DNA of 64,000 bases from Nitrospirota bacterium (GTDB taxonomy: Bacteria > Nitrospirota > Nitrospiria > 2-01-FULL-66-17), in NCBI GenBank assembly GCA_016201825.1, contig JACQCD010000002.1, forward strand, positions 2,080 through 66,079, read 5' to 3'. Below, in pieces: positions 42,005 to 63,949 of the stretch. Numbering within the stretch: the stretch's first letter is position 1; every line of letters starts with the position of its first letter. The translations under genes and the position numbers were made by a program. The notes beneath the pieces are model-generated. The model saw only the letters and a list, made by a program, of their open reading frames with translations. It was not told where the DNA came from and did not search any database.

Positions 42005-42005
42005 G

Positions 42006-47803: not shown

Positions 47804-48880
47804 TTACTCGATCAAATCCTCCAGAGGACTTGACGCATTGGCATAGAGCCTCTTGGGAATTCGGCCCGCGCGATACGCGAGTCGTCCCGCCCGAACCGCA
47901 TCCCGCATGGCTTCCGCCATCATGAGCGGATCTTTGGCGCCCGCGATGGCGGTGTTCATCAACACGCCGCCACAGCCCAGTTCCATGGCAACGGCAGCGT
48001 CCGACGCCGTCCCGACTCCCGCATCCACGATGACCGGGACCTTGACCGTCTCCATGATAATCCGGAGATTATAGGGGTTACGGATCCCCAGGCCCGATCC
48101 GATCGGTGCGGCCAACGGCATCACCGCCGCACATCCGACATCTTCAAGTTTTTTGGCCACGATCGGATCGTCCGTGGTGTAGGGCAGAACGACGAAACCT
48201 TCCTTGACCAAGATTTTGGCCGCCTGCAGCAAGGCCTCGGTGTCGGGAAACAGCGTCCGCTGATCACCGATCACTTCCAGCTTGACCAAATCAGACACCC
48301 CGGCCGACCGCGCAAGCCGCGCGGTCCGAACAGCCTCTTCGGCGGTATAGCATCCTGCGGTATTCGGAAGAATTCGATAGACCTTGGGGTCAAGATAATC
48401 CAGCAGATTGTCGCTGGACCGATCGAGAATATTGACCCTCCGCACGGCGACGGTAACCATGTCGGCCCCTGAGGCGTCGATCACTCGTTTGGTTTCAGCG
48501 AAATCTTTAAATTTCCCCGTCCCGACGATCAGCCGAGATCTGAGATCCAGAGGGCCAATGCGTAGGCAATCCTCACCCCCGCCCCCCCCGACAAAACTGA
48601 CAATCTCGACGCGATCTCCCTCCTCAAGGGCTTTCCCGGCAAACGCGCTGCGCTCGATCACCGACAGATTCACCTCCACGGCAACCCGGTCCGGAATGAC
48701 TCCGAGATTGGCCAGCAGTTGGCCGATGGTCGTGCCTCGCGCCAGCGCGGATGCCTCTCCGTTGACCGTGACCACTACGTGAGCAACACCACTCGATCGC
48801 ACCGTCACCCTCCCACTCGGCTGCCCGAATCGGCAACGCTCAGTAAAACGATTATAACGAGCGCTGGAAAATGAAGTCAA
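47804..48880 (-). CDS. thiG: ThiS-ThiG fusion (sulfur-carrier domain plus thiazole synthase)
   Basis: N-terminal ThiS: [45 protein letters not shown]...[12 protein letters not shown]. Then ThiG: [19 protein letters not shown]...[15 protein letters not shown]...[14 protein letters not shown]. The track start is a TTG; the real start is probably an internal GTG near residue 32-37. Confidence 0.75.
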
Positions 48881-49209
48881 ACCAGAGCGGGGAACAGGCC
48901 GCGGACGAATGTCAGATATTCCTGAGGGGGGTTAATCAGCTCGATGCCCATCTCGGCTTTTCTGAGGTGCCGAGCTAACGCCGGCGGAATGCGCATCGCC
49001 CAGGTCACGTACCCTCGCAACGAGAATCCCTCCCGATCGGGCAGACGCATCTCCAGAACCCGAAGCGTCTTGGCGGGATAAATGGCGGTGGTTTTAACGA
49101 AGAGCCCGGCCTCCGAAACGTCGATCGTAAAGCCGAGCTGGGACGGGTGGTTAACGCCAAATCGAACTTCGATTCGCTTGGTACGCCGAACCTGTTTTTG
49201 TTTTTCCAT
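48877..49209 (-). CDS. PilZ-domain protein (putative c-di-GMP receptor)
   Basis: 110 aa with an N-terminal RRTKR (RxxxR) motif and DVSEAGLF (D-x-S-x-x-G), the two c-di-GMP-binding PilZ motifs. Confidence 0.6.
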
Positions 49210-49214
49210 CGGCG

Positions 49215-50030
49215 TTACCGCCGGGGCGCAATGACCGTTTCAGCGGAATACGGGCTTTCGCAGCCACGGGCATCCACCGCCGTGACCCGGTAGGTCATCG
49301 CCCCTTTCGCATCAAGCCCGGTGTCCACGTAACTTGTCGCGCTTTGGGGGGAGGGGGTCACCCGAACTCGACCACGGTCATCTTCGCGATAGAGATGGTA
49401 CCGGAGCCCCGGATCCCTAGGTCCTGACCACGCTAGGTACACACTGGCCCGCCCTTGGCGGGGGCTCCACAGGTTGAACGGCGGAGGAGGCGGCGTTGCG
49501 GTCGGCATGGACGATGCGGTGACAATGAACCGGTGAGGGGTCCCCACGTGGTTCGTAAAAGAGTACGGCGACGGCGAGGCCGCCAGGTCATACGTCTGGC
49601 CGGTCAGAGCGTCCTGGAGCGTCCAGGCAACCTGCGCGCACTGGGCGGCAACGGTGGAGGGGGGCGTCCACGACAACGAGATCGCAGCGTCCGCCTGATC
49701 CGACGTCACCTCGATGTCCCACACCTGAGGAAAGGTGTCGCCACGCACATCCCACCACAGCGATTGCCGGCCGGCGGGATAGCTTGGGTGTCGGATCACC
49801 GCGGTCAACACGTCGGACGGAAACGCGGCCACCGCGTCCCACGAGGTATCGAAATTATCCGTGCCACCCGGTTCGACTCCGAGGCGCAAATGGTTCTGCG
49901 CCATCCCCCCTTCGGCGGCCTGCGAGGGAACCGAGACCGTCAGATCGATTTCCGAGGCGTGCGCCGGGAGCGCCATCATGCCACACCCCGCCATCAACAC
50001 CGCGCCCACCCATGCTCTCCGTGACTTCAC
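49215..50030 (-). CDS. Secreted protein with C-terminal fibronectin type III domain
   Basis: A GTG start 4 nt after AGGAGG, with the RBS overlapping the stop of the giant gene. The signal peptide is KSRRAWVGAVLMAGCGMMALPAHA. The C-terminal FN3-like region runs PPPFNLWSPRQGRASVYLAWSGP...YHLYRED...YVDTGLDAKGAMTYRVTAVD. Confidence 0.5.
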   Translation of the reverse strand: MKSRRAWVGAVLMAGCGMMALPAHASEIDLTVSVPSQAAEGGMAQNHLRLGVEPGGTDNFDTSWDAVAAFPSDVLTAVIRHPSYPAGRQSLWWDVRGDTFPQVWDIEVTSDQADAAISLSWTPPSTVAAQCAQVAWTLQDALTGQTYDLAASPSPYSFTNHVGTPHRFIVTASSMPTATPPPPPFNLWSPRQGRASVYLAWSGPRDPGLRYHLYREDDRGRVRVTPSPQSATSYVDTGLDAKGAMTYRVTAVDARGCESPYSAETVIAPRR

Positions 50031-50039
50031 GATGCCTCC

Positions 50040-53000
50040 TTAGGGACGGGTGAACACGAGCACGGCATCCGACCCGAAACTCTGGACCCATGCTCCGTTC
50101 CACGGCTTGAACGTCGCCGGTGGACTGGTCGAGAGTCCGTACGGTTGCGTCGTCACCCCGTCATACAGATAGATCGCCGGGCCGACCCAGCCGTTTGTCA
50201 CCGCATTCTGATACGGCACCGGCGCTCCGGCCCCACGTTTGACCTGAACCTGGCTCAACAGAATATCCTGCTCGTACGGGTTCCCGACCATGTTGAATCC
50301 CAACTCGAGCGGCACATCAAAGGTCGGACTAGAGACCACCGGACCTGGCGCGTCCAAGACCGCCTGCGTGCCCAGGGAGCGAAGAAAATACGCTGATCCG
50401 GCGTGGATCGGACCAAGAACCCCGCACGGGGAAAACGCGGGCGTTGACACCGTCCCCTCGTAGCACCCGTCGGTCGGAAGGGGGCCGGACGGATTCCAAC
50501 GGTAGGCGTACACGGGAATCCCGACATCGTCGCCGAACACTCCATCGGCCGTGTCGCTGCCGACCACGGGAATCCGGGGAACCGACACCATGGTATAGCC
50601 GAGTCGCAATGCCGTCCGTCCCACGGCCACGTTCGACAAGCCCGATCGATTGCCTCCATCGTCGATGGCTTGGATCGCGAAGTAATAATTTGTATTCGAG
50701 GTCAGCCCACCCACGAGTACTTGCTGCGCCTGGCCGGAAGGACCGGGAGCAGCCGCCGCCATAACCGTTCCCTGGCTGAAATTAACCGATGTGAGGGGGA
50801 ATGTTGCGTAGCGTACGTCGTACGCCGCGGCGGTTCCGACCGAGCCGTCGTCGCCGGTTGCCGTCCACGTGAGCAAGAGCGACGCGCCCTTCGCCGCGCC
50901 GGAGAACACGGCCAGATCCGTGATCACGGCCGGGGCAATTGTGTCTGCGGACGGAGGGGCGGTTGAGGCGTCTAAAACATTCGACACCGTACCAAGCTGA
51001 CTGAACGCGTCCATGGCCCTCACCGCCACGTGGTAGGTCGTCCCCGGAACGAGGCCGTCGATGACCAGGCTTGCCGTCGTCCCGCTGCTCTGGGGAGTGT
51101 GGAGCGTGTACGGCGTCGCCGTGTCGAAATTGAAGGGGGTCGAGGTCGAGTATCGCACCAGGTAGCCGGCCAGCGGGCCCGAGTCGTCGACGGGAACGGT
51201 CCATTGAACACTCACGGTATTCGCCGTGGGCGCCGCGGCGCCAGGTCGGAGGTCGGCAATCGCCGGCGGGGGTTGATCAACTGGGGTTGTCACCGTCACC
51301 GGCGCCGACCACCCCGACGCATTCGGAATTTCATCCAACGCCCGGAGCTCAAACACGTAGGTGTTGCCTCCGCGCAGCGTGGAGACCGTCAGCGTTTCGG
51401 TTCCACCGGGAGTCTTGGTGGGGGTGATCGCTTGTACACTCGTAACTGTTCCGAGTGTGCGGCGCAACTCGTATCGGCCGACCATCCCCCCGGCTAACCC
51501 ATCGTCCCCAACCGCCGTCCACGTGAAGCTCACGGATATCGGCGTGGGCGCGCCTGCCACCAACGCTGGCGTCGCGGGAGGCGTGGTGTCGGCCGTCACC
51601 GGCGGCGGGGTGATCCCGGGACCCGCTCCACTCGAGTGTTGCGCCAAGCTCACGGCGACCGCGCGACCGGCGACCAGCGTATTTCGGGATAGCACGGCAT
51701 CGAACGCCGACACCAGACCGGAGCCGCTCGCTTGCGCCTCAAGGGCGGTCGCGGCGTCCCAGGCGGTTCCCGTCCACCGTGTGAGCGTGACACGACCCTG
51801 CGTGTCGAACACGCTGAGCGCCAAGCCGTCGGTCCCGCGGGCGGACGCGAGCTCGATCCACGCCGGGTATGGGGTGAAACTCACTGCTGCTCCCGCAGCG
51901 TGGCTAGCGGCAGATGTCCCGAGAGTACCACGAGTCAGACCCGACAGGATCGTCACCGTGCCTATCCCACTCGGCATCTGGCACGAGGTCGTGGTTTCGG
52001 CCTTGCTGGTATACCGAATGGTCTCGACATCCACCGCGACAAGGCCCGAGAACGGGAACGCGATGTCGTTACAAATGGACAGCGCTGTTCCGGACGCCAA
52101 TACAGCGGAATCGAGCTTCGCCGCCAACACCGTCGTCGGCAGCGGCGACGGGATGGGGGACTCAGCCGACCAGCCCCCGGCGGACGACCACGCCCGCGAG
52201 GCGCCGCGCTGGCCGGCCTGAGTGGTGTACGCGGCCAACAGCTCCCCGCTCGTTCCCTCCCACGCGAGATCAAAGCTCCGGCCACCGGCCTCGCTCATCA
52301 GACTCGTGGTCAAGGTGTCGGCGGTCGCCGACCATTGCGCCCCGTCCCAGATCAGGACATTGAGCGCCAACGCCGATGTCCCGCTGCTTGCGGCCAGCGC
52401 AATGCGATTTGAGGTCGCGGAGAGATCGCCCACCAGTCGGAGGGCCGTGAGGGGACCGCTCCCCGCAGACGGCGTCGTGCCTTCGACGCCCCATCCGCCG
52501 ATGTCCGCTAGATCCCGACTCCACACGCGGTAGTGCGGCGTGCTTTCTCCTGCTGCTGCCCACGCGGCCATCATCCTTCCCGTCACCCGTTCGAACGCAA
52601 CATCGACGATTGGCGCGTCGTGACCTGCCGCGTTGGTGGTCAACAGGACGGAGTCTTCCCACGCCTGGCGACTGCCTCGCCAGACCACCGCGGCGACGTC
52701 GTCGTTCTGGTCTTCGTAGACAAGAACCATGTCGTTCGTCGCCGGGCGTGCCTCAAGGCGAACCCACAGCGGTCGGCCCGTGGTCTGTTGGCCGTTGACC
52801 AGATCCTCGACCAGCGCTTCGGCGCTCCAGCTTGCGCCGTCCCATATGCGATAGCGCAGCGAGGTGGAGTCAGTTCGCGCGTAGACGACCACAGCGTGTC
52901 CGGTCTGCTGCTCGTACGCCACGTCCACGGCCTGCGTGGGCCGCGCCAGCCCGACCGACGACGTGGCCTCGATCGCGCCGGTCCACACCTGGCCGTTCCA

Positions 53001-56000
53001 CACACTGAGCATCAGGCGGCGCTGATCATCCACGACGGCCAGGATCCGCTCATCCCGAATCGGATTGGCCTTCATCACCTGCCAGACCGGGGAGGCGGAA
53101 AGGGACGGGCCGGTCAGCCGGCTCGACCATGCTCCGCCTATCCATCGCTGGTACTGAACGGCCGGAACGCCTTGCTGGCCGTATGACGCGATCGCCGAGA
53201 TCAGGTCGGCCGGCGGGGTTCCGACGTAAAACGCCCTGTCCGCGGTGATGCGCCCCCCGTCAGGATTCGTGACGGTTAGGGCATGGTATCCCGCCGCGGC
53301 ACCGGTCGCCACGGTCAATTGGGCGCTCAGGGTCGCCGTGTCGATCCGCGTCAGCCCGCTCACTGTGAGCTCGCTGTCAAAGGCAATCCCCACGCCGGGT
53401 TGGAAGCCCGCGCCCACGATGGTGAGCGCAATCGCGGGACCCTGATTCCCGTAGGCAGGCGTCAACGTCGAAACGGAGGGCCCCGCGTTGATCGTCATCA
53501 GACCCGATCCCCGTCCGTCGTCGGAATTGGTCACGACCACCGGATAACTCCCCGGCAGAACACTTGGTGCGACCGCCACGTTCGCACACGCGATCGTGGA
53601 GTCATTCGTCGCCGCGCACGTTCCGGTGACACCGGCGGGGAGCGTCACGGTGGCTGCGACCAGGGTGCCCGCATCAAAGTTTCCCCCGCTCACGGTGAGC
53701 GACATCCCGGACGCCCCGACGCCCAGCGCCGGACTGACCGATGCGACCGTCGGCGGCGGATTGATCATCACGCGACACGTGGAGCACCCCGAGGTAAACC
53801 CGCTGGGGGTCGTCAACGTCACGTCGCGAAAACCCGGGGCGGCGGTCTCCACCACGTTGATCGTGACCGTTCCCCCGTCGCCGTCCGCGTTGGCGCGGAA
53901 ATTGGCGATGGGATTGGTCACCTGAACATCATAGGTGCCGGGTCTTAACAGCGGATCCGTCGGGTCAAGCGACCGATCCGTGTCCCAGTAAAACTTGATC
54001 TGCTCCGGGCTGACGTACACGCACGGCGTGGAGGAGGTCGGCGTTGAACCTTGGACCGCCACGCAGGAGAGATCGCCCACGACGACCGCCGCTCCGGGCC
54101 GGAATCCGGAATCGGCATCGCTGAAGCCGACAATCGTCACGGCCCGGCTCGTGGTAATCCCGGCCGTGACGACGGCGGGGGCCAGTTTCTCGACGCGAGG
54201 CCGCGGAGCTCTGATGGTGAATCCACCGGGCAAGCTCCCTAGCCCCGCCCCGACGTAGGAGGGATTTGTCACCTGCACCGCGTACGAACCGGGCTGTATC
54301 GCGGTTCCTGGTGAGGTTGCTCCATTATCCCAATAGAATTCCAAATGCGTATTACTCACATAGACGCACGGCACGGTCGGACTCGCCACCGTTCCCGAAA
54401 CCGCCGTGCACGTGAACGTCCCAACCGTGATCACTGGCCCATCGGCCCCGACGGGCGCATAGAATCTTGAGCCCCTGATCGCGACGGATTGACTCGGGGT
54501 CACCGCAAAGTCGACCGTCGAAGGCGTCACGCTCTGGATGATGGGGAGCGGAGGAGCGACGGTAAATGCCTTGTCGAGGAAGAACCATAAGCCGCCGGCG
54601 CTCTGAGGGTTCGTTACCTGCACCGGATAGACACCCGGCGCCAGTCCCGTGTTGGCCCAGTAGAAACTGAGCCGCGTCGCGCTCACGAACGCAAAAGGAA
54701 CCGTGGCCGTGGCTTGCGAACCACTCACTGTGACCCCGGACAGGCACGTCCTCGGCTGGCACACCCCTCCGGTCAGCGTCCCAATCGTGACGGTGGCTCC
54801 AGTGGTGAAATTCGTCCCGAAGATCGAGATCGACTGACTCGCGGTCACGTCGTACGTCACCGGGCTCAGGACGACGGTGGTGATGGTCGGCTGCGGAGCA
54901 TCCACCCTGAACCCGTCGGCCAGACTCACCGTTGCGCCGCCACTCGCCGCGGGATTGGTCACCGTGACGGTGTACGAGCCGATGGCCAGCGACGTGTTGG
55001 GCCAGTAGAAACTCAGCCGGCTGCTGCTCACAAACACAAAAGGGGTCGTCGCGGTCGCCGTTGCGCCCGCCACCGTCGTCCCCGGCAGCGTGGTCGTCGT
55101 CGTTGGGCTGCTGATCGTGATCGTGGCGCCCACCAGGAAATTCGTCCCGAAGATCGACACCGCCGTACTCGGCGTGACCCCGTAGGTCGCCGAACTCGGA
55201 AACGTCGAGGTGACCGTCAACTGGGCTCCCGCGACGGTGAAGCCGTCGACCAGCGTAGCGGCCAGACCACCCGCCGCGGCGGGATTCGTGACCTCCACGG
55301 TATAGGTGGCCGCATCCAGCGACGTGTTGGGCCAGTAAAACCTGAGTTGGCCGCTGCTCACGAAGACAAAGGGCGTCGTCGCAGTCGCCGTCGTGCCCGC
55401 CACCGTGGTCCCCGACAGCGTTTTCGTCGACGAGGGGCTGCTGATCCTGACCCGGGCTCCAACAACGAAACCCGACCCGAAAATGCTGATACTCCCGGTC
55501 GCCGACACTCCGTACGTAACGGGGTTCGGGCTGGTGCTAGTGACCGTGGGTTGCGGGGCGGCCACACTGAAGCCGTCTGCCAGGCTCGCCCCCAACCCTC
55601 CGGCGGCCGAGGGATTGGTGACTTGGACGGTGTACGAGCCGATGGCCAGCGACGTGTTGGGCCAGTAGAAACTCAGCCGGCTGCTGCTCACGTAGACGAA
55701 CGGGGTTGCGGCGGTCGCTGTGCTGCCTGCCACCGTCGTCCCCGACAAACTCCCCACCGTGATCGTGGCCCCCACGATGAAACTCGACCCGATGATCGAG
55801 ATCGAATTACTGGAACTGATGCCATAGGTGACTAGCGTGGGGCTCACGCTGCTGACCGTGGGTTGCGGAGCCGCCACACTGAAGCCGTTTGCCAGACTCG
55901 CCCCCAACCCTCCGGCGGCCGAGGGATTGGTGACTTGGACGGTGTACACGCCCGGCAGCAGCGCCGTGTTGGGCCAGTAGAACTTGAGTTGGCTGCTGCT

Positions 56001-56573
56001 CACGTAGACGAAGGGTGTTGCGGCGGTCGCTGTGCTGCCCGCCACCGTCGTCCCCGACAGGCCCCCCACCGTGATCGTCGCCCCCACCACGAAATTCGTC
56101 CCAAAGATCGATACCGACGCGCTGGGCGAGATCGCATACGTCTCGGCGCTCGGCGACACGCTGCTGACCGTGGGCTGGGGAGCCCGGACGGTGAATCCGC
56201 CCGTGAAGGTAACCGATTCTAATGTCGGATTTGTGACTTGGACGTCGTACACCCCGGGAGCCAGGCTTGTGTTCGGCCAATAGAACTTGAGCTGGCTCGC
56301 GCTCACGTACACGAAGGGCGTCGTCGCCGTGGCCGTCGAACCCGCAACCGCCGCGCCGGATCGGCTGCCGACCGTGATCGTCGCGTTCAGTTGGAAATTC
56401 GCGCCAAAGATCGTGACCGACGAACTCTCGGTGACCGCGTAGGTGACCGACGCGGGGGTGACCGAGCTGATCGTGGGTGGAAGCGCCATCGCGGGTGCGG
56501 ACACCCCGCACACCGCCGCAAACACCACGCCGCCCACAAGGGTCCACCCACTTCGTCGTTGAGAAATCGACAC
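50040..56573 (-). CDS. Giant secreted/surface protein: signal peptide, ~10 IPT/TIG domains, Trp-rich repeat (propeller-like) region, 3 FN3 domains, and an unknown C-terminal domain
   Basis: The start is reassigned to the GTG at residue 46 of the track ORF. It is preceded by a T-run and AAGGAGG plus 5 nt, giving the signal peptide (M)SISQRRSGWTLVGGVVFAAVCGVSAPAMA|LPPT. Next come ~95-aa tandem repeats (PQPTVSSVSP...TYG...SIFGTNF.VGATITVG.LSGTTVAGSTATAATPFVYVSSS.L.FYWPNT.L..G.YTVQVTNP). A central region has recurring W.G..W units (RIWDGASWSAE, LIWDGAQWSAT, TRWTGTAWDAA). Three FN3-like modules follow (YELRRT...TYVFELRALD; YLVRYSTS...TYHVAVRAMD; YDVRYATF...NYYFAIQAID). No C-terminal TM or sortase motif is present. 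Confidence 0.7.
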   Translation of the reverse strand: MSISQRRSGWTLVGGVVFAAVCGVSAPAMALPPTISSVTPASVTYAVTESSSVTIFGANFQLNATITVGSRSGAAVAGSTATATTPFVYVSASQLKFYWPNTSLAPGVYDVQVTNPTLESVTFTGGFTVRAPQPTVSSVSPSAETYAISPSASVSIFGTNFVVGATITVGGLSGTTVAGSTATAATPFVYVSSSQLKFYWPNTALLPGVYTVQVTNPSAAGGLGASLANGFSVAAPQPTVSSVSPTLVTYGISSSNSISIIGSSFIVGATITVGSLSGTTVAGSTATAATPFVYVSSSRLSFYWPNTSLAIGSYTVQVTNPSAAGGLGASLADGFSVAAPQPTVTSTSPNPVTYGVSATGSISIFGSGFVVGARVRISSPSSTKTLSGTTVAGTTATATTPFVFVSSGQLRFYWPNTSLDAATYTVEVTNPAAAGGLAATLVDGFTVAGAQLTVTSTFPSSATYGVTPSTAVSIFGTNFLVGATITISSPTTTTTLPGTTVAGATATATTPFVFVSSSRLSFYWPNTSLAIGSYTVTVTNPAASGGATVSLADGFRVDAPQPTITTVVLSPVTYDVTASQSISIFGTNFTTGATVTIGTLTGGVCQPRTCLSGVTVSGSQATATVPFAFVSATRLSFYWANTGLAPGVYPVQVTNPQSAGGLWFFLDKAFTVAPPLPIIQSVTPSTVDFAVTPSQSVAIRGSRFYAPVGADGPVITVGTFTCTAVSGTVASPTVPCVYVSNTHLEFYWDNGATSPGTAIQPGSYAVQVTNPSYVGAGLGSLPGGFTIRAPRPRVEKLAPAVVTAGITTSRAVTIVGFSDADSGFRPGAAVVVGDLSCVAVQGSTPTSSTPCVYVSPEQIKFYWDTDRSLDPTDPLLRPGTYDVQVTNPIANFRANADGDGGTVTINVVETAAPGFRDVTLTTPSGFTSGCSTCRVMINPPPTVASVSPALGVGASGMSLTVSGGNFDAGTLVAATVTLPAGVTGTCAATNDSTIACANVAVAPSVLPGSYPVVVTNSDDGRGSGLMTINAGPSVSTLTPAYGNQGPAIALTIVGAGFQPGVGIAFDSELTVSGLTRIDTATLSAQLTVATGAAAGYHALTVTNPDGGRITADRAFYVGTPPADLISAIASYGQQGVPAVQYQRWIGGAWSSRLTGPSLSASPVWQVMKANPIRDERILAVVDDQRRLMLSVWNGQVWTGAIEATSSVGLARPTQAVDVAYEQQTGHAVVVYARTDSTSLRYRIWDGASWSAEALVEDLVNGQQTTGRPLWVRLEARPATNDMVLVYEDQNDDVAAVVWRGSRQAWEDSVLLTTNAAGHDAPIVDVAFERVTGRMMAAWAAAGESTPHYRVWSRDLADIGGWGVEGTTPSAGSGPLTALRLVGDLSATSNRIALAASSGTSALALNVLIWDGAQWSATADTLTTSLMSEAGGRSFDLAWEGTSGELLAAYTTQAGQRGASRAWSSAGGWSAESPIPSPLPTTVLAAKLDSAVLASGTALSICNDIAFPFSGLVAVDVETIRYTSKAETTTSCQMPSGIGTVTILSGLTRGTLGTSAASHAAGAAVSFTPYPAWIELASARGTDGLALSVFDTQGRVTLTRWTGTAWDAATALEAQASGSGLVSAFDAVLSRNTLVAGRAVAVSLAQHSSGAGPGITPPPVTADTTPPATPALVAGAPTPISVSFTWTAVGDDGLAGGMVGRYELRRTLGTVTSVQAITPTKTPGGTETLTVSTLRGGNTYVFELRALDEIPNASGWSAPVTVTTPVDQPPPAIADLRPGAAAPTANTVSVQWTVPVDDSGPLAGYLVRYSTSTPFNFDTATPYTLHTPQSSGTTASLVIDGLVPGTTYHVAVRAMDAFSQLGTVSNVLDASTAPPSADTIAPAVITDLAVFSGAAKGASLLLTWTATGDDGSVGTAAAYDVRYATFPLTSVNFSQGTVMAAAAPGPSGQAQQVLVGGLTSNTNYYFAIQAIDDGGNRSGLSNVAVGRTALRLGYTMVSVPRIPVVGSDTADGVFGDDVGIPVYAYRWNPSGPLPTDGCYEGTVSTPAFSPCGVLGPIHAGSAYFLRSLGTQAVLDAPGPVVSSPTFDVPLELGFNMVGNPYEQDILLSQVQVKRGAGAPVPYQNAVTNGWVGPAIYLYDGVTTQPYGLSTSPPATFKPWNGAWVQSFGSDAVLVFTRP
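54650..56480. repeat. Intragenic near-identical DNA tandem repeats (~300-330 nt period, at least 5 copies) encoding the IPT/TIG modules
   Basis: The motif gacgtgttgggccagta(g/a)aa recurs at about 54991, 55321 and 55651, with diverged copies at about 55961 and 56261. Stretches of ~95 nt at about 55541-55635 and 55853-55947 are ~95% identical at the nucleotide level. Confidence 0.6.
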
Positions 56574-56706
56574 CCGCCCCTCCTTAAAAAAAAGAGTAGT
56601 GATGACCGGGGATGACACGAATCCCCTCTGCCTTAGACCTGGACGGGCGCGATTTATTCCGATTTTGCGCGTGCGGCGCTCAAAGCCCGGAACAGGATCG
56701 GCCGCC

Positions 56707-56736
56707 ACTATATCGGTGATATTTCAAGGCTGTCAA
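56707..56736 (-). promoter_or_regulatory. Candidate sigma70-type promoter for the giant gene (-35 TTGACA, 18-nt spacer, -10 TATAGT)
   Basis: The minus-strand reading is cTTGACAgccttgaaatatcaccgaTATAGTggc. It lies between the DUF3105 stop (56748) and the giant-gene start (56573), implying a ~125-nt leader. Confidence 0.35.
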
Positions 56737-56747
56737 GCGCAGCGTGC

Positions 56748-57281
56748 TTACGGCCGTGCACGCTCTTTGGACGCCCCCTCCGGTTCCGACGGTGGATGGT
56801 GATCCTGGCCGCGGTAGGCCTCGATAAATCGGCGGACCAGCCCTTCGTCCCAGGATTCTATCGTCGCGATCCGACCCCACGCCGTGAGCGCGAAGGCGCT
56901 GGACAGGCTGGGCTCAGGGGTCACAAGAACCTGGGTGGGATACTCGGTGAGAAGGCGCTCAAGGGCCGTCATCGTCTCGGGACACGGGCGATCGCAGCGA
57001 TAGTGGATGATGATCCCGCCGTCCTCAAGGTTATGGACCTGCACCTCCCACAACACCGGGATCCGGTGCATCCCCCACGGCGCCAACCACGGAACGTGGG
57101 GACCGGAAGTCGGGGGCAGAGAATGATACGGGGTATGCGGAGATCCCGGCGACTGGAGATGATCGTTGCCTTGAAGCGGGACCGCGCGGCCCGGCTCGTC
57201 GCCGGACACGCTCGCCTGGACGGGGACGGCCCAGCATAACCCCGCCGCAAGCCACGCCAAGCCGTTCCCATTGAGGCGCAT
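56748..57281 (-). CDS. Secreted DUF3105-domain protein
   Basis: A signal peptide MRLNGNGLAWLAAGLCWAVPVQA. The DUF3105 core runs PPTSGPHVPWLAPWGM...VHNLEDGGIIIHYRCD...VLVTPEPSLSSAFALTAWGRIATIESWDEGLVRRFIEAYRG. Confidence 0.55.
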   Translation of the reverse strand: MRLNGNGLAWLAAGLCWAVPVQASVSGDEPGRAVPLQGNDHLQSPGSPHTPYHSLPPTSGPHVPWLAPWGMHRIPVLWEVQVHNLEDGGIIIHYRCDRPCPETMTALERLLTEYPTQVLVTPEPSLSSAFALTAWGRIATIESWDEGLVRRFIEAYRGQDHHPPSEPEGASKERARP

Positions 57282-57372
57282 AGGGGTTTTATCCTACGGC
57301 TGACCCCACCACCAAGTCAATCCGGGCCGTGTCGCCTTGACAGGCTGGAGAGGTTTCAGTAGAGTACGGCCC

Positions 57373-58344
57373 ATGCGGAATGTCCTTCCTCGTGTCGGCA
57401 TCAAACGCATGGTGTGGGCCGTGGTGCTGGGTTCTGCGCTCGTCGGTTGTACCTCGACGATACCTCCCCCTCAGTTTGATTTCTCCGCCCAGCGCACCAC
57501 CTTCCTCACCCACGACACCTTCGACAACCTGAACCCAACCTGGAGTCCCGACGGAAACACGGTCGTCTACGTGTCCAACCGGAACGGCGGGTGGAATCTC
57601 TGGGCCGTCACGCTCGACGGCGCCGCGCCGCGCGCCCTGACGACGGGGCCCGGTGAAGACCGGTTTCCCGCGTTCTCTCCCGACGGCAAGCGTCTCGCCT
57701 TTGCGTCGCGGCGCTCCGGGAACTGGGACATCTGGGCGGTCAACCCCGACGGCACGGGGCTCGCTCAACTCACCACCCATCGCATGGACGATCTGGCTCC
57801 CGCCTGGAGCTGGGACGGCAAGCAGATTGCCTTCGACTCATATCGGGATTTCGAGTACAGCATCTACGTCATGGACGCCGACGGCGCCAACCAGCGTAAG
57901 TTGACCACTGGCGGCAACGGCGATTGGGGGGCGTCGTTCGCTCCATCGGGCGACACGGTCGTGTTCGCCTCGACGCGCACCGGGCATGGCGATCTGTACG
58001 CGATCGATCTGGCCGGAAAGGGGCCGTACCGGCGCCTCACTCAGACCGAAAACGAACGCGAGATGATTCCGACGTTCAATGCGGATGGATCCAAAATTGC
58101 GTTCGTGGCCGAGCGCGAGGGCGGGCGCGACATCTGGGTGATGGATCCCGACGGGAGTCGCCAGACACGCCTCACCCGCAATCTGTCGGGAGCCTGGCAA
58201 CCGCGGTTCAGCGTGGACCGGGAACTCTACGCGGCGATCGGGTACTTCACCGTGGCGTGGAGTCCTGACGGCCGTTCGCTCGCCTATACCCATGTCGACC
58301 GCGATGGGACGGGACAGATCGCGATCCTCTCGCTCGCCCGCTAG
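57373..58344 (+). CDS. PD40/TolB-like beta-propeller lipoprotein
   Basis: A signal plus lipobox MRNVLPRVGIKRMVWAVVLGSALVGC. PD40 repeats follow: PTWSPDGNTVVYVSNRNGGWNLW, PAFSPDGKRLAFASRRSGNWDIW, PAWSWDGKQIAFDS, ASFAPSGDTVVFAS, PTFNADGSKIAFVAEREGGRDIW. The start is placed at the ATG (residue 13) after a TTG track start. Confidence 0.65.
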   Translation: MRNVLPRVGIKRMVWAVVLGSALVGCTSTIPPPQFDFSAQRTTFLTHDTFDNLNPTWSPDGNTVVYVSNRNGGWNLWAVTLDGAAPRALTTGPGEDRFPAFSPDGKRLAFASRRSGNWDIWAVNPDGTGLAQLTTHRMDDLAPAWSWDGKQIAFDSYRDFEYSIYVMDADGANQRKLTTGGNGDWGASFAPSGDTVVFASTRTGHGDLYAIDLAGKGPYRRLTQTENEREMIPTFNADGSKIAFVAEREGGRDIWVMDPDGSRQTRLTRNLSGAWQPRFSVDRELYAAIGYFTVAWSPDGRSLAYTHVDRDGTGQIAILSLAR

Positions 58345-58384
58345 GAGCCTGTCCATGGATGACCATCTGCTGCGTTGTCAGTCG

Positions 58385-58488
58385 GCCTTGCGTGCCCACG
58401 TACGACCTGTAAAGGCGGGTCGATGACCCGCCCTGGGCGAGGCAGCGCCTCGCCCCTACAAGTTGCGCAAGGCCTCCGTCCGCCTTGC
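58385..58488 (+). promoter_or_regulatory. Intergenic cluster of GC-rich stem-loops with mutually exclusive pairings (candidate structured RNA / cis-regulatory element)
   Basis: Hairpin 1 is GGCGGGTC-gat-GACCCGCC (58414-58432). Hairpin 2 is GGGCGAGGC-agc-GCCTCGCCC (58435-58455). The segment gcaaggc (58467-58473) can pair either with gccttgc at 58386-58392 or with gccttgc at 58482-58488. No U-tract follows any of these. Confidence 0.3.
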
Positions 58489-58552
58489 ATCTGGCCACCC
58501 CTGAACAGGCTCCAACATCCCAATACTCGGACACACTCCTAGTTTCCGTCCG

Positions 58553-59491
58553 ATGCGAACCGCCCTCGTTGGGCTTCTGCTTGTGGGCATCGCCGCCGGT
58601 TGCCAGCCGGTCGCTCCGGGATCGCTCGTACTGTCGCCTCCGCAGGCGGCGGTCTCCCGTCAACTCACCTTCTCTCCCGGTAACGATTTTTCTCCGGCGT
58701 GGAGTCCAGACGGCCGTTCCATCGTGTACGTGTCGGACCAAGCCGGCGCGTGGAATCTGTGGACCGTGGATCCACAGGGCCAGGCGCCTCGGGCGTTGAC
58801 GTTCGATCGGTTCCAGTATTCGAGTCCGTCGTTCACCCCCGACGGCGCGTCGATCGTGGTGGCGTCCGACCGCGGCTCTCCGTTGCGGGCGTGGCTCGAC
58901 CTCTGGCTGCTCTCGCGCGAGGGCACGCCGGAACGACGGCTGCTCTCGGAAACGCCGAGCGTCAAAGAGTTCGCTCCGGTCATCTCGCCGGACGGTCGCC
59001 TGCTTGCCTATCTCGATCTTCCAATGAGCCGCGCCCCCCAATACCGTGTGGTGGTCGTCGAACTTCCGGGGGGAATCCCGCGCGTGGTCACGGAGGATCG
59101 CGTCCTGTTCTCGCCGGTCCGGTTCAGCCCGGACGGGCGACAACTGCTCTTTACCTCCGATCGTCTCGGAACGGCCGACGTGTGGATCACGGGGGCGGAC
59201 GGGAGCGGGGCGCGGGCGCTGACGATGAGCCCCGCCGTGGAAACCGTAGGTGACTGGAGCCGTGACGGCTCCACGGTCGTCTTCGTATCAGACCAGAGCG
59301 GCCACGACGAGTTGTGGCTGATGGACGCTCAGGGGCAGGATCGGCGCCAGCTCACGAACGACAGCGACACCGCGTCGCTGCCCGCGTTCTCGCCCGACGG
59401 CGCGTGGGTCGTCTACACGTCCACCAAATCGCACAACCAGGATCTGTGGATCATCCCATCGGGACTAAGACCGGCAATCAGTAATCCTTAG
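58553..59491 (+). CDS. PD40/TolB-like beta-propeller lipoprotein (paralogue)
   Basis: MRTALVGLLLVGIAAGC (lipobox). PD40 repeats follow: PAWSPDGRSIVYVSDQAGAWNLW, PSFTPDGASIVVASDR, PVISPDGRLLAYL, VRFSPDGRQLLFTSDRLGTADVW, PAFSPDGAWVVYTSTKSHNQDLW. Confidence 0.65.
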   Translation: MRTALVGLLLVGIAAGCQPVAPGSLVLSPPQAAVSRQLTFSPGNDFSPAWSPDGRSIVYVSDQAGAWNLWTVDPQGQAPRALTFDRFQYSSPSFTPDGASIVVASDRGSPLRAWLDLWLLSREGTPERRLLSETPSVKEFAPVISPDGRLLAYLDLPMSRAPQYRVVVVELPGGIPRVVTEDRVLFSPVRFSPDGRQLLFTSDRLGTADVWITGADGSGARALTMSPAVETVGDWSRDGSTVVFVSDQSGHDELWLMDAQGQDRRQLTNDSDTASLPAFSPDGAWVVYTSTKSHNQDLWIIPSGLRPAISNP

Positions 59492-59578
59492 AAGTCGCCG
59501 CTTCTCAAGTCTCGACCAAGACTGGCATGCGTTCGAAAAACCGCTTTCGAATCCGATGCCTGAAACCGACCCCTCGCG

Positions 59579-61447
59579 TTACGGTTCTATAATCTGTATC
59601 GTCCGGTTGGCTTCAAAGGGCCCCTGGATCGCCTGGTGTCGCCCTGTTGGCCAAATAATGTCGACCCTGTCTATCGTCCGGTGTTCGCCCAAACCGAAAT
59701 AGATCGGGATTTGGCTCTGCGAGAGATAGCCCGACTTGCCATCGATGTAACGAACCTGGCGGTTACCGCCGTAGGAGATGCTCACCCACGCTCCAATCGC
59801 GTTGCGATTCGAAGCCGTTCCCACCAGTTCCATTTTGAGGTAATGGATCCTACGGCGCTGAGCCAGGTTGCTCACCAAGACCTGCGGAACATCGTTAAAT
59901 TCAGTCGTAACGATGTCCAGATCCCCGTCATTATCGAGGTCGAAGATCACCGAAGAACGAGAACTCCGAGCCCCGCTGACGAACCCGTTCCGATAACAGA
60001 TCCCATCGACCACGCAATCTTGACTAGTGTTAAACACACGGGAGCACTCCACGCGCTCCTGATCACGACCGCCGCAGTCGAGTGCAAAGTAGTCGCCGAT
60101 GAGGGTGCCGTTCGCTCGCGGCTCGATGTTGAGCTCCTTTTCCGCATGCCTGAACCGCTCGCCCTTCTCGTTGATCAGCACCACATTTTTGGCATACGGA
60201 AATGGATACCCCATACCAGACGCCACAAACACGTCTTGATATTGGTCCGCGTCCAGATCCTCGACGCTGATTCCCCAGGGCCAGTAGGTTTCTGCACCGA
60301 TGGCATCCGACATTTCTTCGTAACGGCCATCGCCCATATTCTTATAGAACGTATTCCCCAAGATGTTGTGACTGACATCGCCCATCATCCGCGGGGCCAG
60401 CTCGCGGGGCAGTTTCATGGTCTCCGCTGTGATTCCCCCAAACATGTCCGAGTGCATGTCGGTGGTCATGAGGTCGATGAGCCCGTCGTTGTCGAAATCG
60501 AAGAACTTGATACCCATGGCTCCCCACCCTGTCTTCGGAAACACGGTGGGGGTCACTTCGATGAAGCGCGTCCCACCCACGTTCTCAAAGAACTGATCGT
60601 CGCCCTGCATGTTCGTCACGTAAAGATCCGGGTACCCGTCGTTGTTGTAATCCGCGATCGAGGCGTCCCCATTCCATCCCACGAGATCACCAAGCCCCAT
60701 CTCGCGGCTCACATCTTTAAAGCGCCCACCGCCTAAATTTTTATAGAGGATGCTTCGCTCCGCAAATTCCGGTTGGAGATGCAATTCAAAGGCCCTCTCG
60801 CGCCCCACGTAGTAACCCTGGGAGTCGAACTCGTCGGTAGTGTATCGGCCCACATTCACCACCAAGAGGTCCAGCAACCCGTCACGATCAAAGTCAAAAA
60901 ATACCGCCCCAGACGAATGCCCGTGATAGTCTAATCCAGACGATTCGGTCATGTCCCGAAAAACACCGTTTCCTTCATTCTCCAATAGGACATTGCCCCC
61001 CCGGACCGCTGTGACAAACAAATCCTGGTCTCCATCGTTATCAATATCGGCAAACGCCCCGCCGACACCGACCCGATCACCCAACCCGGTATGAGAGACC
61101 TCCGTAATATCTCGAAATCTGCCCTCACCCAAATTCTTATACAGAGCATTGGCACCGACTTGGTTGATAAAATATAGGTCCACAAGACCGTCGTGATCCA
61201 CGTCGGCGGCGAGGACCCCATTTCCGTGGTCGTAATGGACCGCCTTATAGCGCCGACCCGCATCGTGGACGATCCGATGCCGGAACGTAATGCCAGACTT
61301 CTCTTGCTGATTCGTGAATGAAAACGACGAGGGAGCCGTGGACTGACCTGGGGGCGTGGTGTGCCAATCGCCGAGGGAACCGGAACACCCGCCCAGGACA
61401 ATCAAGATAATGGCCCCAAGAGGAGACCGGCTCCCGATCGTCGTCAT
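59579..61447 (-). CDS. CRTAC1-family lipoprotein (FG-GAP/VCBS-like repeats plus C-terminal ASPIC/UnbV domain)
   Basis: A lipoprotein signal MTTIGSRSPLGAIILIVLGGC. Repeated D-x-D-x-DG loops follow (DVDHDGLVDLYF, DIDNDGDQDLFV, DFDRDGLLDLLV, DYNNDGYPDLYV, DFDNDGLIDLMT, DLDNDGDLDIVT). The C-terminal region ...AIGAWVSISYGGNRQVRYIDGKSGYLSQSQIPIYFGLGE... is typical of UnbV_ASPIC. Confidence 0.6.
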   Translation of the reverse strand: MTTIGSRSPLGAIILIVLGGCSGSLGDWHTTPPGQSTAPSSFSFTNQQEKSGITFRHRIVHDAGRRYKAVHYDHGNGVLAADVDHDGLVDLYFINQVGANALYKNLGEGRFRDITEVSHTGLGDRVGVGGAFADIDNDGDQDLFVTAVRGGNVLLENEGNGVFRDMTESSGLDYHGHSSGAVFFDFDRDGLLDLLVVNVGRYTTDEFDSQGYYVGRERAFELHLQPEFAERSILYKNLGGGRFKDVSREMGLGDLVGWNGDASIADYNNDGYPDLYVTNMQGDDQFFENVGGTRFIEVTPTVFPKTGWGAMGIKFFDFDNDGLIDLMTTDMHSDMFGGITAETMKLPRELAPRMMGDVSHNILGNTFYKNMGDGRYEEMSDAIGAETYWPWGISVEDLDADQYQDVFVASGMGYPFPYAKNVVLINEKGERFRHAEKELNIEPRANGTLIGDYFALDCGGRDQERVECSRVFNTSQDCVVDGICYRNGFVSGARSSRSSVIFDLDNDGDLDIVTTEFNDVPQVLVSNLAQRRRIHYLKMELVGTASNRNAIGAWVSISYGGNRQVRYIDGKSGYLSQSQIPIYFGLGEHRTIDRVDIIWPTGRHQAIQGPFEANRTIQIIEP

Positions 61448-61565
61448 CAGAAGAGAAACCTATCCAGAAAAGTGGTCATCGCTGCGACAACTGATTGGCC
61501 GCGAAGCGACGGCCTACAGAAACTCGGTTTTGTCTACTCCGACCAAGCAATAGGCACTGCCATGG

Positions 61566-62375
61566 TTAACGGGAATCCTTCGCACAGCGGAACCCCACGT
61601 CGTAGCCGGTATGCCAGTCGGTGTCGCGGTCGTTGATCGCGAACAATTCAGGCGCGTAGCGGTGGGTGGCGCGGGCGAAGGGTTGGGCCGGCACGCCCCA
61701 TGACCCGCCGCGGAGCACTCGGTTGCTTTTACCGAACGCGGAGCGGGTGAGCGTGCTCCCAGGGTAGGCCTCGTACCAGGAGCTCGTCCACTCCCAGACG
61801 TTCCCGATCATGTCTTCGACCCCGTACACGCTGGCGCCACCGGGATAGCTCCCCACCGGCCGGCTCCACGCCAGACCGGACTCCATCGTATTGGCGCGAT
61901 CGGACGAAAACCCCGTGCCCCACGGATACGCGGCGCCGTCGGGACCGCGAGCGGCCTTTTCCCACTCGGCTTCGGTCGGCAGGCGCTTGCCGGCCCACCG
62001 GCAGTAGGCGTCGGCGTCGTACCAGTCGGTGTCGGATACGGGGTTGGTGGGCTCGCGCCGGAGCGCGTCGCGTTCCCGCCAGGGCGCGGGGAGGTAGGTC
62101 GACCCCGTCGCGTTAATGAACTTGGCATACTCCGCGTTGGTGACCTCGTAACGATCGATGAAGTAGGCTGGGAGCACAACTTGATGGCGGGGCAATTCAT
62201 CGACCCCCACCTCAATGCCCACCACCCCCTCTCGCTCGTCGCTCCCCATCCAGAACGGTCCCGCCGGAATCAGAACCATCCCCGGCTGCGAATCACCGGA
62301 CGGCACAATCGGCGCCAGACTGCAGGCGCCCGAGAGCAAGCCCACCATCAGCGTGAAGACCCGCCTCATCCGCAT
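61566..62375 (-). CDS. FGE-sulfatase-family lipoprotein (no catalytic Cys pair)
   Basis: The start is placed at the internal ATG (residue 44), 4 nt after AAGGAGA: MRMRRVFTLMVGLLSGAC (lipobox). Then [41 protein letters not shown] and GFRCAKDSR. Confidence 0.7.
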   Translation of the reverse strand: MRMRRVFTLMVGLLSGACSLAPIVPSGDSQPGMVLIPAGPFWMGSDEREGVVGIEVGVDELPRHQVVLPAYFIDRYEVTNAEYAKFINATGSTYLPAPWRERDALRREPTNPVSDTDWYDADAYCRWAGKRLPTEAEWEKAARGPDGAAYPWGTGFSSDRANTMESGLAWSRPVGSYPGGASVYGVEDMIGNVWEWTSSWYEAYPGSTLTRSAFGKSNRVLRGGSWGVPAQPFARATHRYAPELFAINDRDTDWHTGYDVGFRCAKDSR

Positions 62376-62388
62376 GCCCTCTCCTTCC

Positions 62389-63162
62389 TCATCCCACGTC
62401 CTTAGCGCAGCGCGCGCCAAAATGGGGATGATCCCATTTCGGCGCGATCGCATGGCGGTTGGCCGCCCGGCTGAACGGCAGGGGCGGCGTGGTCCACGCC
62501 CCACCCTTTAGCACGCGGTATTTCTGGCCGAAGTCCGGCCGGGCGAGCGTGCTGCCTGGGTACTGTTCGTACCACGACGCCGTCCACTCCATCACGTTGC
62601 CGGCCATATCGTAAGCCCCGTAGGGACTCACATCGCCCGGGTGGCTTCCGACCGGCGCGGTATCCCCGAGGCCGCGGTCCTGAAGATTAGCCGTCCCCGC
62701 ATGATACTCCGAGCCCCACGGCCAGAGACGACCATCCTCGCCGCGCGCCGCTTTTTCCCATTCGGCCTCGGTGGGAAGGCGCTTCCCGGCCCAGCGGCAA
62801 TAGGCATCCGCATCATCCCACGAGAGGTCGCTGACCGGATGATCATTGCGGCGCGGCCGGTCACCGGCCCAGAGCCGCGGCGCGCGGTGACCGGTCTGTT
62901 GCACGAAGTTCGCGTACTCCGCCTCGGTCACCTCGTGCCGATCGATCCAAAACGCGGGAAGCTTCACCCGATGCTGGGGGGTCTCATCGACCCCCTGCTC
63001 AAACCACGCGAGGGCGGGGTTGGGTGCACTCCCCATCGCGAACCACCCGGCGGGCACCACCACCATCCCGGGCGGCGGATCGCGAGGGACCACCACCGCA
63101 GAGGCGCATGCCACCAGCGCAAACACCGCGCTTCCCGTAAGAAGCCACCCCTTATTTGGCAC
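62389..63162 (-). CDS. FGE-sulfatase-family lipoprotein (no catalytic Cys pair)
   Basis: The start is placed at the GTG (residue 43 of the track ORF), overlapping the upstream gene's stop by 11 nt: (M)PNKGWLLTGSAVFALVAC. Then [40 protein letters not shown] and GARCAKDVG. Confidence 0.65.
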   Translation of the reverse strand: MPNKGWLLTGSAVFALVACASAVVVPRDPPPGMVVVPAGWFAMGSAPNPALAWFEQGVDETPQHRVKLPAFWIDRHEVTEAEYANFVQQTGHRAPRLWAGDRPRRNDHPVSDLSWDDADAYCRWAGKRLPTEAEWEKAARGEDGRLWPWGSEYHAGTANLQDRGLGDTAPVGSHPGDVSPYGAYDMAGNVMEWTASWYEQYPGSTLARPDFGQKYRVLKGGAWTTPPLPFSRAANRHAIAPKWDHPHFGARCAKDVG

Positions 63163-63949
63163 AGCGAAACCCCAGGGACCGGTGGCGGAGATCCGGTGGC
63201 TGGGCAAGATTCCGGTTGGTCGCCCGCGACCAGGGTTCGGCCGTGAGGACCCATGCTCCGCCGCGGGCCACCCGCATCTGCTCGCCAAACGCTCCCCGCT
63301 TGAGCGTGCTGCCCGGGTAGGGTTGATACCACGAGGCCGTCCACTCCGCGACGTTGCCGCATAAATCCATCACGCCGTACGGACTCGCGCCCTCGGGAAA
63401 ACTCCCCACCGGGGTGGACCAGCGGAACCCGGACTCCATCGCGTTGCATCGCGTCGGGTCGAACCGGCTCCCCCACGGCCACGCGCGGTCGTCGTCCCCT
63501 CGGGCGGCGCGTTCCCATTCGGCTTCGGTCGGCAACCGCTTCCCGGCCCAGCGGCAGTAAGCTTCGGCGTCGTACCAGCTCACGTAGCACACCGGATGAT
63601 CTTCCTGTCCCGCGGGCGGCCGCCCGTCGACCCACGCGTAATACTCGGGGTCCTTGGCATCGGCCGGCGCGGGCCGACCCGTCGCCTGCATGAAACGTCG
63701 GTATTGTTCGTTGGTCACCTCCAACCGATCCAAATAAAAGGGACGGATGCGGACTTCGTGCTGGGGCATTTCATCCACCCCAATCTCAAACCCGATCTTG
63801 CCCGCATCTCCCCGGCTACCCATCAAGAAGCTCCCACCGGGGATAGGGACCATCCCGTCGGGCGGAGTGCCGGCATCCCGACCGAGGACCAGCACTCCAA
63901 TGCCGACTGCCACCACGGCCATCCCAACACCCACCCAGCCCTTATCCAT
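63152..63949 (-). CDS. FGE-sulfatase-family protein with N-terminal signal/anchor (no catalytic Cys pair)
   Basis: ATG start; MDKGWVGVGMAVVAVGIGVLVLG, then [40 protein letters not shown] and GFRCAK. Confidence 0.7.
   Translation of the reverse strand: MDKGWVGVGMAVVAVGIGVLVLGRDAGTPPDGMVPIPGGSFLMGSRGDAGKIGFEIGVDEMPQHEVRIRPFYLDRLEVTNEQYRRFMQATGRPAPADAKDPEYYAWVDGRPPAGQEDHPVCYVSWYDAEAYCRWAGKRLPTEAEWERAARGDDDRAWPWGSRFDPTRCNAMESGFRWSTPVGSFPEGASPYGVMDLCGNVAEWTASWYQPYPGSTLKRGAFGEQMRVARGGAWVLTAEPWSRATNRNLAQPPDLRHRSLGFRCAK

Follow-up and report, generated by a model that had tools for sequence, protein, structure and literature searches.

The window analyzed here, a 64,000-nucleotide (nt) stretch of a Nitrospirota bacterium contig (JACQCD010000002.1), carries the gene for a giant exported repeat protein and, directly behind it, the gene for a small exported protein with a fibronectin type III (FN3) domain, referred to below as the partner. 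The best-supported conclusion, as far as sequence comparison goes, is that these two genes constitute a conserved two-gene operon that appears restricted to an uncultured, Nitrospiria-type lineage of Nitrospirota. With a probability of roughly 0.55, we favor the reading that the stretch is a mosaic with this operon at its core, specifying an adhesin-like exported fiber and its partner, with an adjoining PilZ-domain gene as an optional addition and the remaining genes as mere neighbors. A first-pass annotation had treated the whole surrounding 15-kb block as one unit responsive to cyclic di-GMP (c-di-GMP). The giant–partner pair is what survives of that proposal: the PilZ gene is lineage-limited, a CRTAC1-like gene of the block is replaced in relatives, and the synteny expected of a single unit largely broke down.

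The coupled gene pair

The pair occupies the following positions:

50040-56573, minus strand: giant gene, 2,177 amino acids (aa) plus stop
49215-50030, minus strand: FN3 partner gene, 271 aa

Synteny was compared across ten related Nitrospirota loci (L001-L011, L005 being the same place as L002), as a test of the proposed module. A giant orthologue lies directly upstream of the partner in all ten, at partner identities to the window of 44-87%, and none of the ten loci contains either gene in the absence of the other. The same comparison spoke against the PilZ and CRTAC1-like genes as constant companions of the pair. The junction between the two genes is conserved as well. The TAA stop of the giant gene opens the sequence TAAGGAGG, and 5 nt past that motif comes the GTG start codon of the partner; reading the junction as TAAGGAGG, N5 and GTG bears out the earlier observation that the partner's ribosome-binding site overlaps the giant stop. 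This overlap of stop and Shine-Dalgarno sequence, in the general form TA(A/G)GGAG-N5-GTG, is kept in 8 of the 10 related loci, including the most distant, and the intergenic gap is 9-16 nt, or the gene calls overlap, in the eight loci whose gene calls show it. Both features persist even at protein identities of only 44-52% and amid diverged non-coding DNA. The partner therefore appears to be translationally coupled to the giant gene, and the preservation of this coupling suggests that the two proteins are produced in a fixed proportion.

In the partner, a signal peptide is followed by a predicted N-terminal beta-sandwich and, at the C-terminus, by an FN3 domain with a narrow Pfam fn3 match (26.6 bits against a cut-off of 25). 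Its AlphaFold2 model has a pLDDT (predicted local distance difference test) of 77.3, and Foldseek returns FN3 tandems. The family comprises 56 homologue clusters, nearly all of ∼255-286 aa (two shorter ones are probably partial), and its source names, where given, are Nitrospirota only. WSPRQGR, YH.YR and GCES are invariant motifs of the family. The idea that the partner arose by duplication of part of the giant was rejected, as BLASTP of the one against the other found no significant similarity.

Transcription of the pair probably starts at a promoter-like site, TTGACA-N18-TATAGT (56736-56707, minus strand), which has 11 of 12 consensus matches; this and all other promoter-like sites mentioned here are consensus matches only. 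The site is followed by a leader of ∼130 nt (56574-56706, minus strand) that holds an invariant block, AAATCGGAATAAAT, with its core at 56653-56664. Promoter-like site and block are both kept in the window, L001, L006, L002 and L008, which are all the loci with the leader visible, and the block stays invariant even where the leader around it differs. Neither the rest of the window nor the 91 loci searched contain a further copy. The leader matches no Rfam family, and a permissive scan also returned nothing meaningful. RNAalifold, run on four leaders only, predicts a weak structure (-13.9 kcal/mol) in which the conserved block is unpaired. The AAATCGGAATAAAT block may act as an operator or as an element of the leader RNA. 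Riboswitches were sought and rejected, both in the giant leader (for c-di-GMP or another ligand) and before thiS (for thiamine pyrophosphate, TPP): Rfam at gathering thresholds yields a single match in the whole window, a tRNA.

Architecture of the giant protein

The giant protein is identical (100%) to NCBI MBI3606413.1 (P0001), named there 'fibronectin type III domain-containing protein [Nitrospirota bacterium]', and its orthologues, from Nitrospirota metagenome-assembled genomes, measure 2,063-2,278 aa. Residues are numbered from the GTG start codon at 56573, which is preceded by an AAGGAGG site. Residues 1-30 read as a Sec signal peptide, ending in ..APAMA before LPP, and the mature protein divides as follows:

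53889-56483, minus strand: eight divergent IPT/TIG-like repeats of ∼100-120 aa with FYW and VTNP motifs, residues 31-895
53220-53753, minus strand: two canonical IPT/TIG domains (Pfam PF01833), residues 941-1118
51654-53219, minus strand: choice-of-anchor Z repeat region (NCBIfam NF058597), residues 1119-1640
50613-51596, minus strand: three FN3 domains (Pfam fn3), residues 1660-1987
50043-50612, minus strand: conserved C-terminal domain, no family assignment, residues 1988-2177

The earlier description as an IPT/TIG-repeat protein holds in part. Pfam TIG finds no match at E<0.01 when run on the whole giant. Scanned alone, residues 941-1030 reach 24.3 bits with PF01833 (E 3e-5) and so pass the gathering score of 20.9, which residues 1031-1118, at 17.3 bits (E 0.005), do not. 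The eight N-terminal repeats, across which the FYW and VTNP motifs are invariant in the repeat alignment, have no direct Pfam TIG match and are reached only by profile–profile comparison: hhalign aligns their profile with a TIG alignment, 10 of whose 14 members match Pfam TIG, at 97.8% probability (E 7.9e-13). On account of this match they are treated as a divergent, putatively lineage-specific TIG subtype with an FYWPNT insertion. At the DNA level, tandem repeats of 312 and 330 nt lie in this part of the giant gene, with neighboring copies 73-88% matching.

The divergent repeat is also found outside the giant, as the C-terminal half of other Nitrospirota proteins of ∼1,200-1,700 aa (P0008-P0040). 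Since it is common to the giant and to this family, the repeat is best described as a probable lineage-specific stalk module. The family members combine FG-GAP/VCBS, SBBP or Calx-beta N-terminal parts with 5-8 copies of the repeat. One of them, P0020 (L094), lies in an unrelated context, with a gene for a BNR/Sortilin-type propeller downstream and no partner-like gene.

The central ∼520 aa had escaped the first-pass annotation. With 134.5 bits (cut-off 30, E 1e-39), they match NF058597 (CoaZ_rpt_PGGG) in five stretches. Motifs of the W-x-G-x-x-W type recur every ∼52 residues, and AlphaFold2 models the region as strands only, with a pLDDT of ∼80-88 over most of its length. The motif spacing suggests a propeller of about eight ∼52-aa blades, most of which end in such a motif. 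Sequence and model together place a ∼70-aa insert between blades at residues ∼1489-1560 (window 52000-52110); the insert carries the motif ..RGTLGTSAASHAAGAAV.. and matches Pfam Rcc01698_C faintly (E 0.015). The FN3 domains are clear (Pfam fn3 71.5 bits, AlphaFold2 pLDDT ∼85, Foldseek matches to FN3 tandems). The C-terminal half as a whole is modeled at a pLDDT of 67.7, and confidence is low for the C-terminal domain. This domain has no Pfam match at E<=10 and no PDB sequence match, and all giant orthologues nevertheless end in ..PWNGAWVQS..DAVLVFTRP, conserved to the last residue. PDB sequence searches likewise returned no relative for the TIG-like repeat profile or the propeller region.

The choice-of-anchor Z module recurs, often in several copies, in unrelated giant proteins. 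'Choice-of-anchor' families take their name from pairing with alternative C-terminal sorting signals; the giant shares the repeat module of NF058597 proteins and has no recognized C-terminal sorting signal. Two bearers of the module from other taxa were placed in their genomic neighborhoods. P0189 lies among sugar-metabolism genes, with no DUF3105, PD40 or partner-like gene near. P0188 (894 aa; L093, 2359-5043) heads an operon reaching ∼12100 that encodes three proteins of ∼130-146 aa, a T2SSE ATPase and two T2SSF proteins, a pilus-like set, again with no DUF3105, PD40 or partner-like gene nearby. The P0188 operon hints that the module may be able to act as a pilus-associated adhesin. A literature search found nothing relevant on choice-of-anchor Z or on Nitrospirota FN3 adhesins.

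The closest known class to the giant is that of the bacterial giant exported proteins with IPT/TIG and FN3 domains, annotated as 'IPT/TIG domain-containing' or 'beta strand repeat-containing'. Members from Acidobacteriota, Planctomycetota, Actinomycetota and Ignavibacteriales are the next-best homologues after those of Nitrospirota, at 26-35% identity. A Sec signal peptide, tandem arrays of TIG or TIG-like domains and FN3 modules are common to the giant and this class, whose members span 1,300-3,300 aa. Unlike them, the giant has eight lineage-specific, divergent TIG-like repeats at its N-terminus, a choice-of-anchor Z propeller and a C-terminal domain without a family. One homologue, P0055, carries a sorting domain of the type IX secretion system (T9SS type A), whereas neither this nor any other sorting domain was found in the giant.

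In the mechanism that we propose, the giant would be exported by Sec and would consist of a TIG stalk (eight divergent and two canonical domains), a head in the form of a propeller of about eight blades, FN3 spacers and the C-terminal domain. Ribosomes would re-initiate at the giant stop codon to translate the partner, itself exported by Sec and built of two predicted beta-sandwich domains. Made in fixed proportion, the two proteins would assemble outside the cytoplasm, the giant as an adhesin-like fiber or matrix protein and the partner as a subunit that docks to or caps it, with the C-terminal domain of the giant as the probable point of contact. In one subclade, a PilZ gene would have been inserted between the partner and the thiS promoter, where it is probably co-transcribed; it may add a c-di-GMP input there and would be dispensable for the pair.

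The PilZ gene and the surrounding block

Every open reading frame (ORF) named in the first-pass annotation is present at its given coordinates. The features downstream of the partner are:

48877-49209, minus strand: PilZ-domain gene, 110 aa, 5 nt 3' of the partner gene
48851-48880, minus strand: putative thiS promoter TTGACT-N18-TATAAT, 11 of 12 consensus matches
47804-48880, minus strand: thiS-thiG fusion as listed ORF, true start probably ∼48790-48805
47043-47714, minus strand: thiE

The PilZ protein has both c-di-GMP-binding motifs, as previously described: RRTKR (RxxxR) at residues 8-12 and DVSEAG (DxSxxG) at residues 30-35. Its tight position behind the partner was also correctly noted, with the partner's TAA followed after 5 nt by the PilZ ATG. 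Profile matches are below threshold, at 18.5 bits for Pfam PF07238 (gathering score 22.5) and 30.1 bits for TIGR02266 (E 4e-7, cut-off 68.7), and a PDB sequence search found no relative. The Caulobacter protein DgrA is a single-domain PilZ receptor for c-di-GMP. The PilZ protein of the window resembles the DgrA type and the myxobacterial TIGR02266 family in being stand-alone, ∼110 aa long and equipped with N-terminal RxxxR and D/NxSxxG motifs, and differs from this kind in falling below both curated cut-offs and in having no PDB sequence relative.

The gene is not a constant part of the locus. Intact copies with both motifs occur in the window, in L006 and L007 (75-76% identity) and in L003 (63%), and in these three orthologues the RRTKR site is conserved and the second motif reads DVSE[AT]G. 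In L001, positions 11320-11640 match window 48877-49209 as a pseudogene: the ATG is gone, a 48-nt deletion has removed DxSxxG, and several small indels disrupt the reading frame. Both genes of the pair beside it are intact, with the partner 85% identical to that of the window. PilZ is absent from 6 of the 10 related loci (L002/L005, L004, L008, L009, L010 and L011), where the thiS promoter lies ∼20-60 nt past the partner in most and ∼190 nt past it in L009. Identity of the neighboring Mpa protein is 94-95% in PilZ-bearing loci (87% in L003) and 81-84% in the remaining loci, which points to a single PilZ-bearing subclade. Given this distribution and the L001 pseudogene, the PilZ gene is most simply viewed as an addition specific to one subclade, with one case of decay so far. 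A role as c-di-GMP input to the pair is possible, with weak support, and c-di-GMP binding is itself a prediction.

The thiS promoter-like site, present in relatives both with and without PilZ, is probably where the operon ends downstream. Its -35 hexamer, TTGACT, contains the PilZ stop TGA, so the PilZ ORF exactly fills the space from partner to promoter. No terminator-like site was found downstream of PilZ. The thiS and thiG genes are fused in the window, L001, L002, L006 and L007 and are separate and overlapping in L003, L004 and L008-L011, a spread that does not match that of PilZ exactly. Directly downstream of thiE lies a complete Pup-proteasome cluster (39700-47000, minus strand) in the order mpa, Pup-ligase homologue, pup, prcB, prcA, second Pup-ligase homologue and a Peptidase_M23 gene.

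On the other side of the pair, the block continues with:

56748-57281, minus strand: DUF3105 gene, 177 aa (Pfam PF11303)
57373-58344, plus strand: PD40a lipoprotein gene, divergent from DUF3105
58553-59491, plus strand: PD40b lipoprotein gene
59579-61447, minus strand: CRTAC1/ASPIC-like FG-GAP lipoprotein gene (FG-GAP_3 and UnbV_ASPIC)
61566-62375, minus strand: FGE1 (FGE-sulfatase, PF03781)
62389-63162, minus strand: FGE2 (FGE-sulfatase, PF03781)
63152-63949, minus strand: FGE3 (FGE-sulfatase, PF03781)

Pfam backs the domain names that the first-pass annotation had assigned here and to the partner (fn3, DUF3105, two PD40, FG-GAP_3 with UnbV_ASPIC, three FGE-sulfatase). Its statement that the three FGE-like proteins are lipoproteins needs qualification. 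All members but PilZ appear to be exported. Read by eye from the sequence, AxA-type signal peptides occur in the giant, the partner and the DUF3105 protein, and lipoboxes in PD40a (LVGC), PD40b (AAGC), the CRTAC1-like protein (LGGC), FGE1 (SGAC) and FGE2 (LVAC). The N-terminal hydrophobic segment of FGE3 has no cysteine, and this protein is no obvious lipoprotein. A run of some ten genes for exported proteins is unlikely to arise by chance, in our own estimate rather than by a computed statistic.

Genomic neighborhood analysis shows that the whole neighborhood is collinear in this lineage. The thiS/thiG, thiE, mpa, pafA, pup, prcB, prcA and second Pup-ligase homologue genes keep the same order wherever a locus extends far enough; the DUF3105 gene and the two PD40 genes are collinear in 4 of the 4 loci with the upstream side visible (L001, L002, L006 and L008); and at least 15 flanking genes keep their order across the compared loci. 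As the thiamine and proteasome genes are equally collinear, the synteny of DUF3105 and PD40 shows no functional linkage to the pair. The DUF3105 protein scores 82.4 bits with PF11303 against a cut-off of 25. PD40a (159.6 bits) and PD40b (131.9 bits) match Pfam PD40; the TolB model TIGR02800 reaches 187.7 and 156.2 bits, respectively, against a cut-off of 343, with the propeller part alone aligning, and PD40a is a PD40 beta-propeller only. Orthologues in the four loci are 74-92% (PD40a) and 60-88% (PD40b) identical. The DUF3105 protein and the two TolB-like PD40 lipoproteins are thus conserved envelope-protein neighbors, and any link to the pair would be hypothetical. A literature search found nothing relevant on DUF3105, and a PADLOC scan for anti-phage systems returned no match for the PilZ, partner and DUF3105 proteins or the C-terminal half of the giant.

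Beyond PD40b, collinearity gives way. The CRTAC1-like gene adjoins PD40b only in the close relative L006, which has the same order as the window from the CRTAC1-like gene through PilZ. It is replaced by a third PD40 gene in L001 and by two cytochrome c7 genes each in L002 and L008. A metagenome scan with the CRTAC1-like protein collected 80 loci with homologues of ∼50% identity, in none of which a PD40, DUF3105, giant, partner or PilZ gene lies near. This replacement and these 80 loci tell against the gene's supposed membership in the module, and it is better regarded as an unrelated, variable flank.

The FGE-like genes fare no better as members. An FGE-like gene lies near the CRTAC1-like homologue in 2 of the 80 metagenome loci, and a fourth FGE-sulfatase-family gene (4896-6104, minus strand, a 402-aa ORF) is located in the window far from the tandem three, making the fold a multi-copy family in this genome. 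Within the tandem, the genes are ∼10-13 nt apart or overlap. The three proteins match PF03781 at 190.8, 202.1 and 212.8 bits, and their best solved match in the PDB is SUMF2/pFGE, an inactive paralogue. FGE3 has no cysteine aligned with the catalytic copper-binding pair (the C-terminal C-x-x-x-x-C segment), and FGE1 (..RGGSWGVPAQPFAR..) and FGE2 (..KGGAWTTPPLPFSR..) have no Cys at that position. All three FGE-fold proteins are accordingly predicted to be non-catalytic, and their genes are probably an unrelated, variable flank. Their fold is shared with SUMF2/pFGE and with PorK/GldK, and, like PorK/GldK, two of the three appear to be lipoproteins. They differ from PorK/GldK in being much shorter, in scoring far below the GldK cut-off and in lacking a T9SS context.

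Elsewhere in the window, a Bro-N domain ORF (9531-10778, minus strand) lies a few kb from the tRNA (4744-4815), and the GC content drops to 0.58 at 2-4 kb and 22-24 kb; together these may mark the remnant of a mobile element.

Alternative readings and significance

The first-pass proposal, that the giant, partner, PilZ, DUF3105, both PD40, CRTAC1-like and all three FGE genes form one c-di-GMP-responsive adhesion, matrix or surface-layer (S-layer)-like system, drew on the apparent export of every member but PilZ and on the tight packing of a PilZ with both motifs behind the partner, and the order kept in L006 from the CRTAC1-like gene to PilZ adds to this side. We nevertheless regard it as very improbable. 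Of the 10 related loci, six lack PilZ and a seventh carries it as a pseudogene. In three relatives, other genes stand in the place of the CRTAC1-like gene, whose homologues keep different company in 80 other loci, and the FGE-like genes are multi-copy in the genome. Promoter-like sites, including divergent ones between DUF3105 and PD40a, divide the block into at least four transcription units. Pfam and NCBIfam detect neither SLH nor any other recognized domain for S-layer anchoring or lattice formation, and the scanned ORFs of the window yielded neither a diguanylate cyclase nor a phosphodiesterase domain. The Lap proteins of Pseudomonas (LapA, LapD and LapG) are a c-di-GMP-controlled giant adhesin system, and the likeness of the present locus to them is one of concept only: the display of a giant repeat adhesin on the surface in response to c-di-GMP. 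Neither an RTX protein or type I secretion system (T1SS), nor a LapD-like GGDEF-EAL receptor, nor a LapG protease was found, either in the region or in the scanned window ORFs. Unlike the T1SS-secreted Lap adhesin, the giant uses a Sec signal peptide, and the sole c-di-GMP element here, a small cytoplasmic PilZ, does not accompany the giant consistently.

Several points also weigh against our own reading of an adhesin-like fiber with its partner. As all relatives belong to a single collinear lineage, mere adjacency could reflect common descent as well as function; the functional argument for the pair is carried instead by the preserved overlap of stop and Shine-Dalgarno sequence. A giant–partner complex is argued solely from coupling and co-occurrence. 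The giant has no PEP-CTERM, LPXTG, T9SS C-terminal domain, SLH or autotransporter match in Pfam or NCBIfam, and with no outer-membrane translocation or anchor signal recognized it could be periplasmic. The adhesion role, the complex, the localization and the binding of c-di-GMP are all things that we infer. The missing anchor, together with Sec signal peptides on both proteins, is what makes it conceivable that the pair are structural parts of the periplasm or envelope, such as an envelope scaffold, acting with the PD40 lipoproteins and the DUF3105 protein, whose genes accompany the pair in all four visible loci, with divergent promoter-like sites between DUF3105 and PD40a. We hold this to be unlikely, though deserving of attention. 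The downstream housekeeping genes are equally collinear, which leaves the PD40/DUF3105 linkage uninformative, and choice-of-anchor Z proteins of other taxa (P0188 and P0189) have no such neighbors. Architectures of TIG, FN3 and propeller domains with varying repeat number are, partly from general knowledge, typical of extracellular proteins; the character of a surface repeat protein is supported here by the TIG/FN3 giants as next-best homologues, by repeat DNA identity reaching 88% and by varying orthologue length. That the giant acts alone, beside an unrelated exported protein kept there by collinearity and a PilZ serving an unrelated cytoplasmic target, would fit a single lineage with at least 15 flanking genes in kept order and the dissimilarity of the partner and giant sequences. 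This we consider distinctly improbable, since the overlap and the 9-16-nt spacing persist at 44-52% protein identity and the two genes were never found apart among the compared loci.

The favored mosaic, with the giant–partner operon as its core, prunes a speculative 10-gene system to a coupled pair of a giant exported protein and its partner. It is a long shot that the giant and partner, with or without PilZ, amount to an undescribed Sec-dependent surface-fiber system, specific to this Nitrospiria lineage, in which the partner docks or caps the fiber, the AAATCGGAATAAAT block sets expression and PilZ, in one subclade, makes display or assembly respond to c-di-GMP. No new class of mechanism is involved, as TIG/FN3 repeat giants are common and NCBI already has an annotated entry for this one; any link to c-di-GMP would be optional and evolutionarily unstable. 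For researchers working on these groundwater and soil lineages, to whom the interest is local, an abundant-looking 2,177-aa exported protein with a lineage-specific partner would be a reasonable candidate for attachment or aggregation in uncultured Nitrospirota.

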